Source: a virus
Lineage: Duplodnaviria > Heunggongvirae > Uroviricota > Caudoviricetes
Reading direction: 5' to 3' (one strand)
DNA length: 38,006 nt
IMG/VR virus record: IMGVR_UViG_2778261277_000017
Coordinates: 1-38,006 of that record
Each line of letters opens with the position of its first letter. The stretch's first letter is position 1. A program made the translations under genes and the position numbers. Shown in pieces: positions 5,213-35,881 of this stretch. Under the pieces are notes generated by a model. The model was not told where the DNA came from. It saw only the letters and a program-made list of their open reading frames with translations, and did not search any database.

Positions 5213-5243
5213 CAGATAAAAAATCGCCCTCACATTGGAGGGC
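5213..5243 (-). terminator. Rho-independent terminator-like hairpin upstream of ea10 (minus strand)
   Basis: GCCCTC / GAGGGC 6-bp stem with 6-nt loop at 5226-5243, followed on the minus strand by GATTTTTTAT. Confidence 0.45.
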
Positions 5244-5361
5244 AAAGAAGATTTCCAATAATCAGAACAAGTCGGCTCCTGTTTAGTTACGAGCGACATT
5301 GCTCAGTGTATTCACTCGTTGGAATGAATACACAGTGCAGTGTTTATTCTGTTGTTTATGC

Positions 5362-5387
5362 CAAAAATAAAGGCCGACTATGCGGCC
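5362..5387 (-). terminator. Rho-independent terminator immediately after the 207-aa gene (minus strand)
   Basis: GGCCG / CGGCC hairpin at 5372-5387 followed on the minus strand by TTTATTTTTGG; overlaps the stop codon of the 207-aa gene. Confidence 0.5.
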
Positions 5388-6001
5388 TCGGAAGGAAGTC
5401 CAATCATCTTATTCAAATCTTCTACCCGTAAAGCAGGAAGTGCTGTACTTGCTTTATCTGCTTCTTTTGGTAGCAACTCTTTGCTTTCAGGCCAAACCTC
5501 AATAAGTCGCTTAACTGTTGTGACTGAGTTTAAAGCAGCCCATACATTTGATTCGATATCCTTTTTCTTTGCTTCAAGTTTTTGTTGTAATGAGCAGATT
5601 TCATCAAACCTTTTTGTTATTTCGTGCTCTGCGTCAAACATGCATTTATCTTTTGTCGGAGTAGGGAGCAATATATCTTCGCCGTTGCCGTCTTTCCCAT
5701 ATGAATGCCATCCAACCCTTCTGCCAGATACAGTCAGATAAATTGAAGTAGAATGAACATCGTATGAGTAAAATGAACATCCCATCTTTCCAAGTTCTTC
5801 ACTTATAGCTACCAACTTGGATGATAACTGATCCACTTCCTCAGTTTTCTTTTTACCGCCAAACGCAATAACTCTGGCGTCAAGTGCAAGCTGGTTCTTT
5901 AACTTTGTTACTTCTTCAAGTTCAGTGAAAACCCCAGACTTAATTAAAGCGTTACGAGCGATTTCCTCTTTCATTCTCGTAGTTAAGCGGATTGATGACA
6001 T
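5378..6001 (-). CDS. Hypothetical 207-aa protein immediately downstream of N, where lambda carries sieB/ral; function unknown
   Basis: ATG at 6001 preceded by GAGAGGAATTAAT Shine-Dalgarno. Hydrophilic, largely helical-looking sequence (MSSIRLTTRMKEEIARNALIKSG...). AT-rich compared with flanking lambda genes. No recognisable lambda Ral sequence present. Confidence 0.6.
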   Translation of the reverse strand: MSSIRLTTRMKEEIARNALIKSGVFTELEEVTKLKNQLALDARVIAFGGKKKTEEVDQLSSKLVAISEELGKMGCSFYSYDVHSTSIYLTVSGRRVGWHSYGKDGNGEDILLPTPTKDKCMFDAEHEITKRFDEICSLQQKLEAKKKDIESNVWAALNSVTTVKRLIEVWPESKELLPKEADKASTALPALRVEDLNKMIGLPSEAA

Positions 6002-6012
6002 ATTAATTCCTC

Positions 6013-6339
6013 TCAAATAAGTGGTTTGCTGCCTAATTTCATTTTCTGGCGGCCTGAACAAGTCACACCCATTTCACTGCGTGGCTTGCTGTACCATGTG
6101 CGCTGATTCTTGCGCTCAATACGTTGCAGGTTGCTTTCAATCTGTTCGTGGTATTCAGCCAGCACCGTAAGGTCTATCGGATTCAGTGCGCTTTCTACTC
6201 GTGATTTCGGTTTGCGATTCAGCGAGAGAATAGGGCGGTTAACTGGTTTTGCGCTTACCCCAACCAACAGGGGATTTGCTGCTTTCCATTGAGCCTGTTT
6301 CTCTGCGCGACGTTCGCGGCGGCGTGTTTGTGCATCCAT
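6013..6339 (-). CDS. N: Antiterminator N (lambda-type, divergent C-terminus)
   Basis: MDAQTRRRERRAEKQAQWKAANPLLVGVSAKPVNRPILSLNRKPKSRVESALNPIDLTVLAEYH... is the lambda N arginine-rich motif and core; the last ~25 residues differ from my recollection of lambda N. Confidence 0.9.
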   Translation of the reverse strand: MDAQTRRRERRAEKQAQWKAANPLLVGVSAKPVNRPILSLNRKPKSRVESALNPIDLTVLAEYHEQIESNLQRIERKNQRTWYSKPRSEMGVTCSGRQKMKLGSKPLI

Positions 6340-6537
6340 CTGGATTCTCCTGTCAGTTAGCTTTGGTGATTGGATGGCCGGCGCTGAACCCCGGCTTACT
6401 GGTTAGAGCGCCCGCACTACCAGTGACGCTGTCTTGAGGCGCAGATTGGTTACTGCTTGCCATGAGCGCTGTTTATACATTGGTCGAGCATCAGCCTGCT
6501 CATTCATCCAATCCCAAAGCCTTCTGCTTTGAATGCT

Positions 6538-6607: not shown

Positions 6608-6670
6608 AGTATCACCGCCAGTGGTATTTATGTCAACACCGCCAGAGATAATTTATCACCGCAGATGGTT
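6608..6670 (-). promoter_or_regulatory. oL1-oL2-oL3 operators with pL promoter (lambda immunity)
   Basis: TATCACCGCCAGTGGTA (6610-6626), CAACACCGCCAGAGATA (6634-6650), TATCACCGCAGATGGTT (6654-6670). Minus-strand -35 TTGACA (6631-6636) and -10 GATACT (6608-6613). Confidence 0.9.
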
Positions 6671-6859: not shown

Positions 6860-7765
6860 TCAATGCTTATTTGGGAGTGCTGGTTTTTTTATCGACTCTA
6901 ATAGCTCGGAGGCGTTACTAATCTTTTTGTTCCCAAGGTAATTTGGCAGTTTTTCCATTGCGTAATTATCGTGTAGCCATTTTCTGAACACGCCAAGTGC
7001 CTCAATAGGATAAATCCAAGCTGTTATATGCTTATTTGCAGCTGACTGCCTGTAATTTTCGGGGAATAAATGTGGGTACTGCACCCTTTCCCCGAATTTC
7101 TCAGATAGCCCATTAGCTGTCCAATACTTTCCCCAGTGAATTCCAACACTTCCATCCAAAGATGTGGTGTCATCCATTGGGAATCCTCCTCCGATCAGGT
7201 TCATGGCAATGTCAGCTATCTCTCTGAATACTGCAAAATGAGTTGTCGGTATCTGATCGTTTAGCTTAATCCTTGCTCTATAGTTCTCGAATGAGATATC
7301 TATTGAAGCATTTGGGTTGTAATTTGACTTTTCATAAATCATTCGCTTAAGCGTGTACTCAGCCAAGCGAACAAAATTACCTATTGCGACTGACCTATCA
7401 AAATTGGTGGCATCTAGAGCGTAGTAACGGAGGATAGCCATGCAAACATAGTCAGGATAAGCATGAGTTTCCACGTTTGAGCTATTTAAAACGCGAGTGT
7501 ATAGCTTTTCGACGTTATGAAACCCTTTCTCAGCTAAATACGCAGCTACTTTTTGACCTCTGGGTTTGTTTTTCTCTGTGTTCCAGTTTGATGTGAACAC
7601 CCTCAGTGGCGTGTCATCAATGCCGCATAACTTTGCGAGACCGTAGAGAGTTAGGTAAGGAGTTCCATCATTGAGAACGCCCATAGGAATATCATCAGAA
7701 ACAACCTCTACTACAGGGAAAAGCTGCATTTGATGCAGGGATTCGCTATTGCTGTTAATCGACAT
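6860..7765 (-). CDS. Hypothetical 301-aa protein in the position lambda uses for rexA-rexB (downstream of cI, before oL); candidate prophage-encoded exclusion/abortive-infection gene
   Basis: Single long ORF co-oriented with cI and followed by a terminator. AT-rich compared with cI. No similarity to RexA/RexB as I recall them; no HExxH motif, so not Lit-like. N-terminal region (LFPVVEVVSDDIPMGVLNDGTPYLTLYGLAKLCGIDD) loosely resembles Bro-N/KilA-N-type domains. Confidence 0.7.
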   Translation of the reverse strand: MSINSNSESLHQMQLFPVVEVVSDDIPMGVLNDGTPYLTLYGLAKLCGIDDTPLRVFTSNWNTEKNKPRGQKVAAYLAEKGFHNVEKLYTRVLNSSNVETHAYPDYVCMAILRYYALDATNFDRSVAIGNFVRLAEYTLKRMIYEKSNYNPNASIDISFENYRARIKLNDQIPTTHFAVFREIADIAMNLIGGGFPMDDTTSLDGSVGIHWGKYWTANGLSEKFGERVQYPHLFPENYRQSAANKHITAWIYPIEALGVFRKWLHDNYAMEKLPNYLGNKKISNASELLESIKKPALPNKH

Positions 7766-7851: not shown

Positions 7852-8568
<717 letters not shown>

Positions 8569-14343: not shown

Positions 14344-14418
14344 GGGTCAGTCGTATAAAGGTCATTACGGAAGGCTGTTAACCTTCTTATCGTGGTTCGA
14401 GTCCACGCTGTCCCGCCA
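14344..14418 (+). tRNA. tRNA gene, anticodon loop CUGUUAA (anticodon GUU, Asn-like)
   Basis: Hand fold: acceptor GGGTCAG/CTGTCCC (one mismatch), T-arm CGTGG-TTCGAGT-CCACG, anticodon arm GAAGG-CTGTTAA-CCTTC, encoded 3' CCA. Confidence 0.7.
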
Positions 14419-14423
14419 AATAT

Positions 14424-14499
14424 GCTGGTTTAGCTCCAATGGTAGAGCAGTCGCCTTGTAAGCGAATGGGTAGCGGTTCAAGTCCGTTAACCAGCACCA
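14424..14499 (+). tRNA. tRNA gene, anticodon loop CUUGUAA (anticodon UGU, Thr-like)
   Basis: Hand fold: 7-bp acceptor GCTGGTT/AACCAGC, D-arm TAGCTC..GAGCA, T-loop GGTTCAAGTCC, encoded CCA. Confidence 0.7.
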
Positions 14500-32530: not shown

Positions 32531-32543
32531 AGAGGGATTGGGT

Positions 32544-33116
32544 ATGGCGATTAGCTACGCATTTGCGCTGGCAACAATTACACAACAAATGAATCAGGTT
32601 CAGGAAGCTGTTAACGGTGCTTTCAAACCCCTGATCTCTAATGCTTGTGAACTGCCACAACGATTAGATGCTGAAGAGGTATTTCGTCGTTGTACCGCGA
32701 TTGCTGCACGCGCTCAAGAAATCGAAAATACCGCGAAGGAAGGCATGTCTCATCTCGAAGCTTTTCGAAATGGGAGAATCATTGTTGATGAGCTTCCGGA
32801 AGAGTTTTTATCCCATCTCGAAGGTCTTGCCAAGGCATGCCGAAATGCTAAAGGACATTTAGTGGATATGTTCTCTGAAGCGGAAAGGTCCCCTATGTGG
32901 CAAGGCCATCTGCAAATGTTGCGCCCATTAAAACGCAAATATGTTCGTGCGTTGACCGCCGTCGAGAACACTGCAACTCAGTTGGCCGCTGAAGTTAGGC
33001 AATCGCAGCCTTTCCAGGCTGAACTCTTGTCAGATAATGTTACCCGTGAAGAGGCTATTGAACTGATCTCAACATCGCATAAGATGCTGGGAGCCAACGC
33101 CCCTAAATGGATGTGA
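32544..33116 (+). CDS. Hypothetical 190-aa helical protein, upstream partner of the YafO-like gene (candidate antitoxin/regulator of a novel type)
   Basis: ATG at 32544 with AGAGGGA Shine-Dalgarno; 1-nt gap to the downstream gene. Far larger than, and unlike, the Phd/YefM-type antitoxin YafN that partners YafO in E. coli. Confidence 0.6.
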   Translation: MAISYAFALATITQQMNQVQEAVNGAFKPLISNACELPQRLDAEEVFRRCTAIAARAQEIENTAKEGMSHLEAFRNGRIIVDELPEEFLSHLEGLAKACRNAKGHLVDMFSEAERSPMWQGHLQMLRPLKRKYVRALTAVENTATQLAAEVRQSQPFQAELLSDNVTREEAIELISTSHKMLGANAPKWM

Positions 33117-33117
33117 C

Positions 33118-33534
33118 ATGGCAAAAGTCAGTATCACGGGAGAATTGCGTCATTTAGCTGCAGCACATAAGTATGCTCAAATGCTTGCCGATTATATTTC
33201 AAAGGGTTCCCAGTTCTGGTGTTTTGGTTCGTTAGGCGGTTTTGAACGTAACTATGATGCGATGGCTGCCAACATCAGGAAAATTCACTTAAAGCTACCT
33301 GGCGATAAACCCTGGCCTCCAGAAGCATCTCTGAGTGAACGGACATGTGATAATTTTTTGGTATATGCTCAGCATCTTTATATCGATGAACACTATCAGA
33401 TATTGGCAATCATCAGCCCAAACGCTCATCAGCAAGCTGATTCGATGCTTCCCCGGCTGATAAAATTAGCAGAGGAAACCTTCATAGAACTTCCTCCTGA
33501 TGAACTCGAAAAATTGAAAACCTACGATTCATAA
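33118..33534 (+). CDS. YafO-family toxin-like protein (ribosome-dependent mRNA interferase family), tentative
   Basis: 138-aa ORF. Segments ADYISKG, KIHLKLPGDKPWPP, FLVYAQHLYIDEHYQILAIISPNAH and RLIKLAEETF align with what I recall of E. coli YafO (ADFISYK, HIHLANENNPFPP, HLVYCQGAFDEQAWLLIAILKPEPH, KIGKMAEAF). Recall-based, unverified. Confidence 0.6.
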   Translation: MAKVSITGELRHLAAAHKYAQMLADYISKGSQFWCFGSLGGFERNYDAMAANIRKIHLKLPGDKPWPPEASLSERTCDNFLVYAQHLYIDEHYQILAIISPNAHQQADSMLPRLIKLAEETFIELPPDELEKLKTYDS

Positions 33535-33576: not shown

Positions 33577-34329
33577 ATGGCAGTATCTGACCAGACCCGC
33601 AGCGGCGACCTTGCCGAAACATTCAAATCTGAACGGGAAACAACAAAGAATCAGATCCGTGTCGCCTTGCCTGGCATTATTCAGTCATTCGATCCTGATG
33701 CGGTGACGGCGGTTGTGCAGCCTGCTATCCGTTCGGTTGAAAAGGATAATGACGGCAACCGCATTACCAAAAATTACCCATTGTTGGTGGATGTTCCAGT
33801 GGTATTCCCACGTGGCGGAGGATGTACGCTAACGTTTCCGATTAAAGCCGGGGATGAGTGTCTTGTCGTTTTTGCCGATCGTTGTATTGATTTCTGGTGG
33901 CAGAGCGGCGGAATACAGGAACCGGTCGATGACAGAATGCATGATTTATCGGATGCGTTTTGTATTGTAGGCCCCCAGTCGCAGGCGAGGAAGATTAGCG
34001 GTATTAATACCAGTGCCACACAGTTGCGTAGTGACGATGGCAGCACCTATTTTGAGCTTAATCCTGATACCAGGAAAATTAAAATTGTCGCTCCGGGTGG
34101 TCTTGATGTGGTTGCCCCTCTGGCTGATTTTTCTGAGAAAGTAACCATTCATGGCCTGTTAACCTGGATGGGGGGCATGGTGGGGTCTGTTGTTTCTGGT
34201 GTGGCTTCAAAAATCACTGGTGTTGTTGAGTTTTTGGGTAGCGTGAAGGCTAACGGCAAGCCAATCGATGATACGCACACTCATGGCGGTGTTCAGCGCG
34301 GTGGAAGCAATACCGATGGGGTAAACTGA
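33577..34329 (+). CDS. Baseplate spike / gpV-like protein
   Basis: 250-aa ORF with GGAG Shine-Dalgarno; Gly-rich C-terminus (THTHGGVQRGGSNT) typical of gpV-like spike proteins. Confidence 0.55.
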   Translation: MAVSDQTRSGDLAETFKSERETTKNQIRVALPGIIQSFDPDAVTAVVQPAIRSVEKDNDGNRITKNYPLLVDVPVVFPRGGGCTLTFPIKAGDECLVVFADRCIDFWWQSGGIQEPVDDRMHDLSDAFCIVGPQSQARKISGINTSATQLRSDDGSTYFELNPDTRKIKIVAPGGLDVVAPLADFSEKVTIHGLLTWMGGMVGSVVSGVASKITGVVEFLGSVKANGKPIDDTHTHGGVQRGGSNTDGVN

Positions 34330-34682
34330 TGCGATACAGACGTGAAGACGCCGATGGCGATTACACCTTTGGCAGCGGTGATGACACCTGGCTGATTAAC
34401 TCACCGGAGGCCGTGGCGCAGGCGGTAAAAACGCGATTCGAATTGTGGTATGGGCAATGGTTTCTCGACACCACCGAGGGGACTCCGTGGATCCAGTCCG
34501 TACTCGGTAAGCAGAAGCCGGAAACCTACAACCTGGCGATCCGTAAGCGCATCCTCGAAACGCGGGGCGTTAAATCAATCCTCTCTTTCAATACGACGGT
34601 GGATACCACGACCCGACGTGTCATGTTTTCCGCTGAAATCGACACTCTTTATGGAATAACGACTGTTACATCGGAGGCGTAA
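34329..34682 (+). CDS. Baseplate wedge protein (gpW/gp25-like)
   Basis: 117-aa ORF, ATGA-coupled after the spike gene; size and position typical. Confidence 0.5.
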   Translation: MRYRREDADGDYTFGSGDDTWLINSPEAVAQAVKTRFELWYGQWFLDTTEGTPWIQSVLGKQKPETYNLAIRKRILETRGVKSILSFNTTVDTTTRRVMFSAEIDTLYGITTVTSEA

Positions 34683-35881
34683 TGGCTCTGAACCTTGATT
34701 CTCTCGGTTTATCTGCAAAGGTAACCGCGGAGGGGATCAGTGCGCCTGATTATCAGACGATACTCAGCACCCTGATTAGCTATTTTCAGCAGATTTATGG
34801 CAGTGATGCCTACCTCGAACCGGACAGCAAAGACGGCCAGATGGTGGCTCTGATGGCGCTGGCGATTCATGATGCCAATAATACGGCGATAACTGTCTAC
34901 AACTGTTTTTCACCGGCAACCGGCTATGGGGCTGCACTGACCAGTAACGTGAAAATAAATGGTATTTCACGTAAAGGCGCGACGAACTCTACGGTTGATT
35001 TGCTTCTTACAGGAACTGCCGGAACAACCATCATTAATGGCAGCGTGAAAGACAGTAATAATGTGATATGGCGTTTGCCTGCTTCAGTGGTGGTCGGCGT
35101 GGATGGTACAGTGATGGTGACCGCAACATGTTCCGTCAGTGGTGCAGTGGCGGCGCTGGCTGGAACTATCACTGAAATTAATACGCCAACCCGTGGCTGG
35201 GTTTCGGTAACCAATCCTGCTGCAGCTACTGTAGGCACTCCAGCAGAAACTGATGCGGAGTTACGTATCCGCCAGTCGCAAAGTGTTGCGTTGCCATCAA
35301 TAACCCCATTTGAAGCACTGGATGGTGCCGTTTCTAATGTTACCGGTGTAACCCGCCACAAACTCTATGAAAACGATACTGGTTCGGAGGACGGTAACGG
35401 GTTACCGCCACACTCTGTTGCTGTAATTGTGGATGGCGGTGATGTGACGGATATTGCTCAGGCTATCAGAGGGAATAAAGGTCAGGGGACAGCCACTCAC
35501 GGTACAACATCCGTTACGGTTCCGGATAAATACGGCAATCCCCATGTAATCAAATTCTCGCGTTCCAGTGATGTACCTGTTTATGCCCGGATTAAATTAA
35601 AAGTTTTTACGGGTTATACCTCACAGATAGGGCAACAGATCCAGCAGGCTATTTCCGACTATATCAATAGTCTGATGATTGGTGATTCGGTCCTTTTAAG
35701 TCGCATTTACTCACCGGCGAATCTTGGCGTGGTGAGTGGCGGGAATGCACGCTATTACGATATTCAGGAACTGACGATTGGGAAATCCCCGGGGGCTTTG
35801 TCGTCATCAAACATTGATATCAGATACAACGAATCTGCGTCCTGTACCCCGGAAAATATCGTTATAACGGTGGAGTCATGA
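34682..35881 (+). CDS. Baseplate J-like protein
   Basis: 399-aa ORF following the gpW-like gene, as in P2/Mu-type baseplate clusters. Confidence 0.55.
   Translation: MALNLDSLGLSAKVTAEGISAPDYQTILSTLISYFQQIYGSDAYLEPDSKDGQMVALMALAIHDANNTAITVYNCFSPATGYGAALTSNVKINGISRKGATNSTVDLLLTGTAGTTIINGSVKDSNNVIWRLPASVVVGVDGTVMVTATCSVSGAVAALAGTITEINTPTRGWVSVTNPAAATVGTPAETDAELRIRQSQSVALPSITPFEALDGAVSNVTGVTRHKLYENDTGSEDGNGLPPHSVAVIVDGGDVTDIAQAIRGNKGQGTATHGTTSVTVPDKYGNPHVIKFSRSSDVPVYARIKLKVFTGYTSQIGQQIQQAISDYINSLMIGDSVLLSRIYSPANLGVVSGGNARYYDIQELTIGKSPGALSSSNIDIRYNESASCTPENIVITVES

Follow-up and report, generated by a model that had tools for sequence, protein, structure and literature searches.

An Nmad5 family gene in place of the sieB-ral block in a lambda-like leftward early operon

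Family assignment of the gene

The subject of this work is nmad5, an open reading frame (ORF) of 207 codons found on the minus strand of a 38,006-nt stretch of DNA from a virus of the class Caudoviricetes (IMG/VR record IMGVR_UViG_2778261277_000017, positions 1–38,006; the whole stretch is referred to as the window). The ORF starts with an ATG codon at position 6001 and ends with a TAG codon at 5380–5378. It is nearly certain that it encodes a soluble single-domain member of the phage-restricted Nmad5 family, carried on a module of about 0.7 kb that replaces sieB-orf28-ral of phage lambda and transcribed together with N from the CI-repressed promoter pL, ahead of the first terminator.

A search against Pfam revealed a match to PF18757 (Nmad5) with an E-value of 1.9e-71 and a score of 240.8 bits (cut-off 27), in which residues 4–203 of the protein were aligned with positions 1–206 of the 206-position profile. 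The protein also matched phrog_1965 (E=1.3e-83), which is annotated as "unknown function", and no match was found among the NCBIfam models. The PGAP/RefSeq name in the records listed is "Nmad5 family putative nucleotide modification protein" (WP_089648930.1). An earlier note on this DNA, made from the sequence alone, had described the gene as unassigned and had proposed either a SieB-family protein or an unrelated gene. Because the Pfam match is full-length and a RefSeq/PGAP name exists, the gene is not unassigned, and it was the fallback option of an unrelated gene that held, the protein belonging to Nmad5 and being neither SieB nor Ral. The Nmad5 family is already catalogued and functionally uncharacterised; nmad5 is one of its members, and the assignment is an ordinary one rather than a discovery.

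The Nmad5 family comprises 2,266 clusters at 50% identity, nearly all of them stand-alone proteins of about 200 aa (representatives mostly 190–215 aa). All 80 diverse members that were compared match PF18757 alone, and no fusions were found. In this set, W170, L176, P178 and N197 (window numbering) are invariant, and I14, A18, R43, G48, G93, T162, L166, P171, E172, E175, P189, L196, G201, L202 and P203 are conserved in at least 90% of the members; the window protein has every one of these residues. Conservation is centred on the block SVTTVKxLLxxWPEAxELLP...LPAxxxxDLNxxIGLP, and the N-terminal motif RLT..R..I..NA..K.G, WPE-x3-LP and the C-terminal DLNxxIGLP are all present in the window protein. 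The family is essentially phage-restricted: it was found in 6 of 72,556 plasmid records, all phage-sized and non-mobilizable, and a plasmid "leading-region" anti-defence gene was rejected as an identity for nmad5 since these six records are the only ones of plasmids that carry it.

Among complete E. coli genomes, nmad5 is carried by 211 of 5,426 (about 4%). A 100% identical copy (WP_089648930.1) is located in the thrW-integrated lambdoid prophage of STEC1587, which is near-identical to the window apart from an indel of about 400 nt elsewhere. In HK542, mEp235, Kapi1 and many Stx1/Stx2 phage records the gene is labelled "hypothetical"; the HK542 and mEp235 papers contain nothing on it, and the literature found under the Pfam and PHROG accessions held nothing relevant. 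For comparison of loci, a set of 80 IMG/VR loci with 96–99% identical nmad5 copies was used (the related loci). In this set, 50 of the 52 unique nmad5 copies are intact and the ratio of nonsynonymous to synonymous substitution rates (dN/dS) is about 0.38. The Pfam match, the intact copies, the dN/dS value and the occurrence in E. coli show that the ORF is a real, constrained gene.

The alignment with the lambda proteins that the earlier note had called for gave no significant match to SieB or to Ral. With lambda SieB as the query, BLASTP returned E=0.30 over 8 residues (P22 SieB was not separately compared). The maximum Kyte–Doolittle value over 19 residues was 0.61 in the nmad5 protein versus 1.73 in lambda SieB, so that the former has no membrane-like segments while SieB is membrane-like, and in the annotation of lambda (NC_001416) sieB runs on the opposite strand. 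The SieB-family option was refuted on these grounds. For Ral, no local alignment was obtained at E ≤ 100, and the lengths differ (207 aa vs 66 aa). A substitute for Ral was also rejected, because Ral itself is encoded directly upstream of nmad5 in 12 of the 80 related loci. Homologs of Ral and SieB were absent from the whole window (tblastn, best E-values of 0.54 and 0.25, respectively), in agreement with the earlier observation that no Ral was recognisable there, and lambda-type SieB was found by tblastn in none of the 80 loci. What nmad5 has in common with both lambda genes is the slot between N and ea10, the junctions of its cassette coinciding with the sieB-ral block; the likeness to Ral also includes being a small, non-essential product of the pL early operon. 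A DNA mimic of the Ocr/ArdA type was rejected as well: the isoelectric point (pI) is 6.36, there are 31 K+R versus 32 D+E residues, and no Ocr/ArdA fold was present among the PDB matches.

Some database copies of the gene deserve mention. In Escherichia phage APC_JM3.2 (locus L002, 3629–4252), nmad5 is annotated as "Smchd1", a name that is almost certainly spurious and prompted by a coiled coil; its upstream neighbour there is a small early gene of another kind, and ea10 is separated from it by two additional small ORFs. The copies in Stx2a phages (e.g., LC616058.1, 11132–11653) match residues 34–207 only, with 94% identity, and each Stx2a-converting phage record holds a second place that matches nmad5, which suggests an N-terminally replaced or split variant.

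Cassette structure and transcription signals

The coordinates of the features in the region are given in Table 1. The start codon of nmad5 follows the TGA stop codon of N (6015–6013) after a spacer of 11 nt, and identical 11-nt spacing behind N-type genes recurs in related loci. N lies immediately upstream and the two genes are co-transcribed. The GC content of nmad5 is 39.9% versus 49.6% for the window. The terminator scan placed a hairpin of 7 bp, including 5 G-C pairs, over the stop codon of nmad5, followed by TTTATTTTT. Its folding energy is -11 kcal/mol and its shape is classic, yet the z-score against shuffled sequences is only -1.55. The hairpin 5224..5245 is presumably a member of the lambda tL2 cluster. 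The description given in the earlier note was thus borne out as regards the ORF straight after N, its strong Shine–Dalgarno sequence, its own terminator and its AT-richness.

Table 1. Features of the nmad5 region of the window
Feature	Position	Strand	Basis
nmad5 coding sequence, 207 aa, single domain, 23.1 kDa, pI 6.4	5378..6001	-	ORF and translation, Pfam, phrog, PGAP
Shine–Dalgarno sequence GAGG, 7 nt ahead of ATG, within the 11-nt N-nmad5 spacer	6009..6012	-	read from sequence
Intrinsic-terminator-like hairpin (5389..5370) with U-tract	5361..5389	-	terminator scan, fold energy
Second terminator-like hairpin, between nmad5 and ea10, common to lambda	5224..5245	-	terminator scan (-12.9 kcal/mol, z=-3.1); lambda alignment
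Antiterminator N, lambda-type N-terminus and non-lambda C-terminal tail	6013..6339	-	Pfam N36 (E=1.5e-26), lambda alignment, PGAP
pL promoter TTGACA-17-GATACT, in the lambda-identical oL region	6608..6636	-	promoter scan and identity with lambda oL/pL
Mosaic module: last ~23 codons of N, spacer, nmad5, 5' arm of terminator	5376..6082 (approximate)	-	DNA alignment with NC_001416

The alignment with NC_001416 resolved the boundaries of the module and confirmed that its position is the ral/sieB slot of lambda, with nearly identical flanks on both sides, as had been proposed for the pL operon. The upstream flank, from oL/pL/nutL through about codon 85 of N, is about 99% identical to lambda. Identity is lost inside the 3' end of N; the precise point of its return is the 3' arm of the terminator with the T-tract, and from there it continues through ea10. 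This break in N and the return in the terminator indicate that the module of about 0.7 kb takes the place of lambda sieB-orf28-ral (lambda 34087–35036). The terminator is therefore composite: its 5' arm is part of the cassette and its 3' arm and T-tract are common to lambda, where the same T-tract occurs without a hairpin. The gene order of the STEC1587 prophage (PGAP) is exo, bet, gam, kil, cIII, DUF2528 (ea10), nmad5, N.

Across the 80 related loci, both flanks of nmad5 diverge at many different points. Upstream stands an N gene, of which at least five types occur, or, in the 12 loci mentioned above, Ral; the downstream neighbours belong to at least ten gene classes. Several of the N types have a common C-terminal tail together with the 11-nt spacer.

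The tail of the window N (6013–6082, minus strand; last ~23 codons) is unlike that of lambda N (...KPRSEMGVTCSGRQKMKLGSKPLI), and in related loci the same tail is joined to at least four different N-termini of N. The sharing of one tail by different N-termini points to a mosaic junction inside the N coding sequence, with the tail travelling together with nmad5. Another substitution relative to lambda, of about 150 nt, was found between the nutL region and the start of N (window ~6360–6500, minus strand), with identical sequence on both sides.

Expression context in temperate phages

A consensus scan of the window showed that pL is the only promoter-like site upstream of nmad5 on its strand; between pL and nmad5 the scan detected no further one. 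The gene also lies upstream of the first intrinsic terminator of the pL operon. Homologs were also considered from prophages of Klebsiella, Providencia and Serratia (43–58% identity) and from Erwinia, Cronobacter and metagenomic prophages (42–80% identity); a scan of genome contigs returned four loci. In all these prophages, Nmad5 is located in the leftward early operon beside a CI-type repressor, where its place is 11 nt behind an N_peptide-type gene or, if no N was called, that of the first ORF. Thus, in every temperate phage examined Nmad5 is the first or second ORF of a repressor-controlled leftward early operon.

Since pL is repressed by CI and nmad5 is co-transcribed with N ahead of the first terminator, we infer that the protein would be made immediately on infection or induction and would be silent in the lysogen. 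An anti-restriction or exclusion role, to which the earlier note pointed, is conceivable. The early, repressor-controlled context favours a lytic-phase role, such as that of Ral or Gam, over a lysogen-expressed exclusion role such as that of SieB. Co-transcription with cI in the manner of Rex was considered for the prophages without a called N and was rejected: in the Klebsiella and Serratia loci the order is cI, a strong intrinsic terminator, oR operator copies overlapping a near-consensus promoter, and Nmad5, so that terminators end cI and the operator copies overlap the promoter upstream of Nmad5.

In a Klebsiella prophage without a called N, a 21-nt inverted repeat (L100, 4812–4832 and 4952–4972; 90% complementary, arms 119 nt apart) was found in the leader of about 265 nt between pL and Nmad5. 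It may be a structured RNA element of the nut or put type.

Predicted structure and the name of the family

Modeling of the nmad5 protein with AlphaFold2 led to a soluble helical/beta domain with a predicted local distance difference test score (pLDDT) of 91.9 and a predicted template modeling score (pTM) of 0.83. In the model, three long helices and a small beta sheet are followed by another long helix and the WPE turn; the C-terminal helix is docked and is preceded by a flexible linker. Fold searches were performed with a first model (pLDDT 84.6), which has the same secondary-structure layout. No relative of this model was found among solved structures, and the search of a viral structure library returned other Nmad5 proteins only. 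The conserved residues of the family did not form a catalytic constellation.

The family is reported to owe its name to a contextual analysis by Iyer et al. (2013), the context being that of phages that hypermodify thymidine. Such a context was seen in the phages M6, CN1 and Pam3, in which Nmad5 stands between aGPT-Pplase1 and a thymidylate-synthase-like gene, all upstream of DNA polymerase (Pol) I, and the SN1 genome note describes the same thymidine-hypermodification context. The Nmad5 proteins of M6 and SN1 (Pseudomonas), CN1 (Bordetella) and Pam3 (cyanophage) resemble the window protein in family, in being single domains of ~190–210 aa and in the C-terminal motif block. However, the genes of M6, CN1 and Pam3 lie between aGPT-Pplase1 and a dUMP hydroxymethylase-like gene, whereas the lambdoid copy in the STEC1587 prophage is an orphan: no thymidylate-synthase-like gene/hydroxymethylase, kinase, aGPT-Pplase or methyltransferase was found in that prophage. 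Near nmad5 in the enterobacterial prophage contexts examined, there were likewise no thymidylate-synthase-like genes, no kinase of the 5-hydroxymethyl-dU (hmdU) pathway and no aGPT-Pplase. In the reconstitution of the M6 pathway in lysates, gp51–55 were used and the steps were assigned to gp51–54; Nmad5 was not included (PMC8989533). No association of the gene with base-modification genes was thus seen here, which touches the presumed function and not the family membership, and the name "nucleotide modification" probably does not apply to nmad5 in this setting.

Homologs in lytic phages

In lytic phages, Nmad5 is found in replication modules. It translationally overlaps DNA Pol A in Acinetobacter phage Scuro, lies between genes of the single-stranded DNA-binding protein (SSB) and RusA in Vibrio phage PG11 (SSB-Nmad5-RusA), follows Pol and ThyX in Salmonella phage FSL SP-058 (Pol-ThyX-Nmad5) and, in Vibrio phage Athena1, closely precedes the replication gene O. 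Elsewhere its placement is moron-like: in Dhillonvirus, on the opposite strand among head genes, and in phage ZRG1, between the large terminase and portal genes.

Published Nmad5 phenotypes are confined to the Dhillonvirus homolog (PhiSMS22/PhiSMA8; Yamashita et al. 2025, PMC11846954). According to that work, phages with the K216E/K296E substitution evaded the Tmn defence, whereas a phage from which the gene had been deleted did not; this deletion phage was viable, the gene being dispensable. Cloning of the gene failed because of apparent toxicity. The Dhillonvirus protein belongs to the same Pfam family and is likewise non-essential in its phage, and its N-terminal RLT...I..N, WPE and C-terminal LN..G.P motifs align with those of the window protein. 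The escape lysine K216 (in homologs of 253–254 aa) aligns with the basic residue R165 of the window protein, next to L166 and five residues before WPE; for this mapping, the numbering of Dru_SM5 and Ioannina stood in for that of PhiSMA8. The differences are considerable: identity is 23–27%, the Dhillonvirus protein has 253 aa with an insertion of ~50 residues in the beta region, and the gene is a core gene of a genus of lytic phages, on the opposite strand among head-morphogenesis genes.

Possible function of nmad5

The function that we tentatively prefer, while giving it somewhat less than an even chance, is host takeover or counter-defence by an immediate-early protein without enzymatic activity, which would be directed at DNA metabolism or at a conserved component of the host. 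In favour of a connection with the host or with DNA metabolism are the replication modules that contain the gene in lytic phages and, in Dhillonvirus, the Tmn escape and the apparent toxicity. A non-enzymatic role is suggested by the lack of partner enzymes in the STEC1587 prophage, the M6 reconstitution without Nmad5 and the lack of a catalytic constellation. Nmad5 would here be a binding protein rather than a base-modifying enzyme, and the conserved C-terminal block (SVTTVK/R-L-x3-WPE-x3-LP ... DLNxxIGLP), packed on the helical core, would serve as the contact surface. Its target could be replicating phage DNA or a conserved host component of DNA metabolism or immunity, and the outcome would be that phage DNA replication is favoured or that host defence is evaded. 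Such a role would be akin to those of the non-essential early pL factors Ral and Gam and unlike that of the lysogen-expressed SieB.

Lambda Gam and P22 Abc2 are inhibitors of a host nuclease encoded in the early pL operon; they are non-essential, largely helical and non-enzymatic. Their likeness to nmad5 would be a functional analogy only (early pL expression, DNA metabolism), as no homology to the nmad5 protein was found in any search. A replacement of Gam is not a suitable explanation, because Gam is present in the same operon.

A broader and more doubtful version of this proposal is that "Nmad5" is a misnomer for a widespread group (>2,000 clusters at 50% identity) of non-enzymatic immediate-early proteins, whose binding to an immune sensor or to a conserved target in the host would secure phage DNA replication. 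For example, they could act in a pathway sensed by Tmn-type KAP NTPases, and a charge reversal at the equivalent of R165 would then result in escape. If this were true, protein synthesis from pL would begin with Nmad5 in temperate enterobacterial phages.

Several observations weigh against a host-takeover or counter-defence factor. Published experiments are limited to the Dhillonvirus homolog, and in Dhillonvirus Nmad5 is a core gene rather than a variable accessory one. The PADLOC-DB v2 models gave no family at E ≤ 1 with the nmad5 protein. The near-absence of Nmad5 from plasmids is unlike the distribution of general anti-restriction genes, the dN/dS value of 0.38 indicates constraint and not arms-race diversification, and the near-neutral pI of 6.4 speaks against a DNA-mimic mechanism. 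The timing of expression was derived solely from consensus scans for promoters, operators and terminators. Finally, in hmdU phages Nmad5 has thymidylate-synthase-like genes and aGPT-Pplase1 as recurrent neighbours, so that some role connected with nucleotides stays conceivable.

Nmad5 may instead serve phage DNA replication or recombination as a dedicated accessory factor (for example, a partner of the polymerase, SSB or recombinase, or a protector of replication intermediates), with no part in the phage–host conflict; this alternative is unlikely, though the likeliest of those considered. In both lytic and temperate phages Nmad5 adjoins or is coupled to DNA Pol A, SSB, RusA, a DUF2800 nuclease or replication O, and in lambdoid phages it is encoded in the same pL operon as exo/bet/gam or erf/abc2; the phage restriction of the family, its core status in Dhillonvirus and the purifying selection would also fit. 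However, the Dhillonvirus gene is dispensable, as a deletion phage was made and plated (PMC11846954). Only about 4% of the complete E. coli genomes have the gene, as do only some of the lambdoid phages whose replication and recombination genes are otherwise identical. Moreover, its flanks are mosaic and moron-like, it is located among head genes far from the replication genes in ZRG1 and Dhillonvirus, and the Tmn-escape phenotype ties Nmad5 to a defence system.

It is improbable that nmad5 takes a true part in nucleotide or DNA base modification, be it as an enzyme not recognised as such or as a subunit for DNA targeting or regulation, a role that would shield phage DNA from restriction. The contextual origin of the name, the gene order kept in M6, CN1 and Pam3 and the ThyX neighbour in FSL SP-058 point in this direction, and E172 and an "ADH" motif (residues 124–126) are fairly well conserved. 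The hydroxymethylase, kinase, aGPT-Pplase and methyltransferase missing from the STEC1587 prophage are, however, also missing from the Klebsiella, Serratia and Cronobacter contexts, the M6 steps were rebuilt from gp51–54 without Nmad5, and no known enzymatic fold was matched. DNA of the lambda type is not known to be hypermodified.

A functional analogue of SieB or Nun, i.e., a superinfection-exclusion or abortive-infection protein expressed from the prophage, was considered very improbable. The gene does occupy the sieB slot, is never accompanied by lambda-type SieB in the related loci, is AT-rich and moron-like with a terminator of its own, and is the first gene after pL in prophages without a called N, the position that Nun holds in HK022; an unspecified "NMAD" domain is also listed among unvalidated DefensePredictor predictions. 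Against this, the consensus scan gave no promoter-like site of its own, and the gene is placed behind the operator-controlled pL and after the terminators that end cI. The protein had no PADLOC match and is soluble, unlike SieB, and the family is found in strictly lytic phages (N4-like, M6-like and Dhillonvirus), for which prophage defence would make no sense. The lysogen-side defence slot of the window is, in addition, already taken by BstA.

An early-operon transcription or regulatory factor (antitermination or modulation of the lysis–lysogeny decision) would fit the N position in prophages without a called N, namely those of Klebsiella, Serratia and locus L113, where Nmad5 is the first ORF after pL, and the long leader with the 21-nt inverted repeat in the Klebsiella prophage, but is hardly credible given that nmad5 coexists with a bona fide N here and in many other loci, that Nmad5 lies within replication modules of lytic phages and that no arginine-rich motif, helix-turn-helix or fold match to regulators was found.

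The host-takeover or counter-defence proposal concerns a gene present in about 4% of complete E. coli genomes and in many records of Stx1/Stx2-converting phages, and one that comes first or second in expression from the early leftward promoter. For prophages without a modification pathway, the automatically assigned name "putative nucleotide modification protein" probably misleads. Given the position of the gene, the apparent toxicity on cloning and the link to Tmn escape, Nmad5 may reasonably be regarded as a candidate for a new class of early factors in host takeover or counter-defence, and testing in lambda-like phages would be easy because the nmad5 cassette is clean and naturally swappable. 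The new points are that the family is represented in temperate phages by an orphan under repressor control, placed first or second in the pL operon, that a defined cassette replacing sieB-ral carries the gene, and that the name given to the family is probably inapplicable to it here.

Other features of the window

Several genes outside the nmad5 cassette were noted. An ORF of 301 aa (6860–7765, minus strand) located between cI (7852–8565) and pL encodes the abortive-infection protein BstA (PADLOC PDLC02356, E=1.3e-105). It occupies the rexAB slot of lambda, has no Pfam match and is named "hypothetical protein" by PGAP.

Two tRNAs are encoded by the phage on the plus strand, namely tRNA-Asn(GTT) at 14344–14418 and tRNA-Thr(TGT) at 14424–14499. 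In a 2026 preprint, a viral tRNA-Thr(UGU) was described to rescue phages from the P2 OLD tRNase, so the tRNA-Thr(TGT) of the window could be a counter-defence element.

A type II toxin of the YafO family (33118–33534, plus strand; Pfam YafO_toxin, E=4e-17) was found among the baseplate and tail genes. Directly upstream of it lies an ORF of 192 aa (32538–33116) with no family match, and the pair looks like a toxin–antitoxin or defence-like moron in the structural module.

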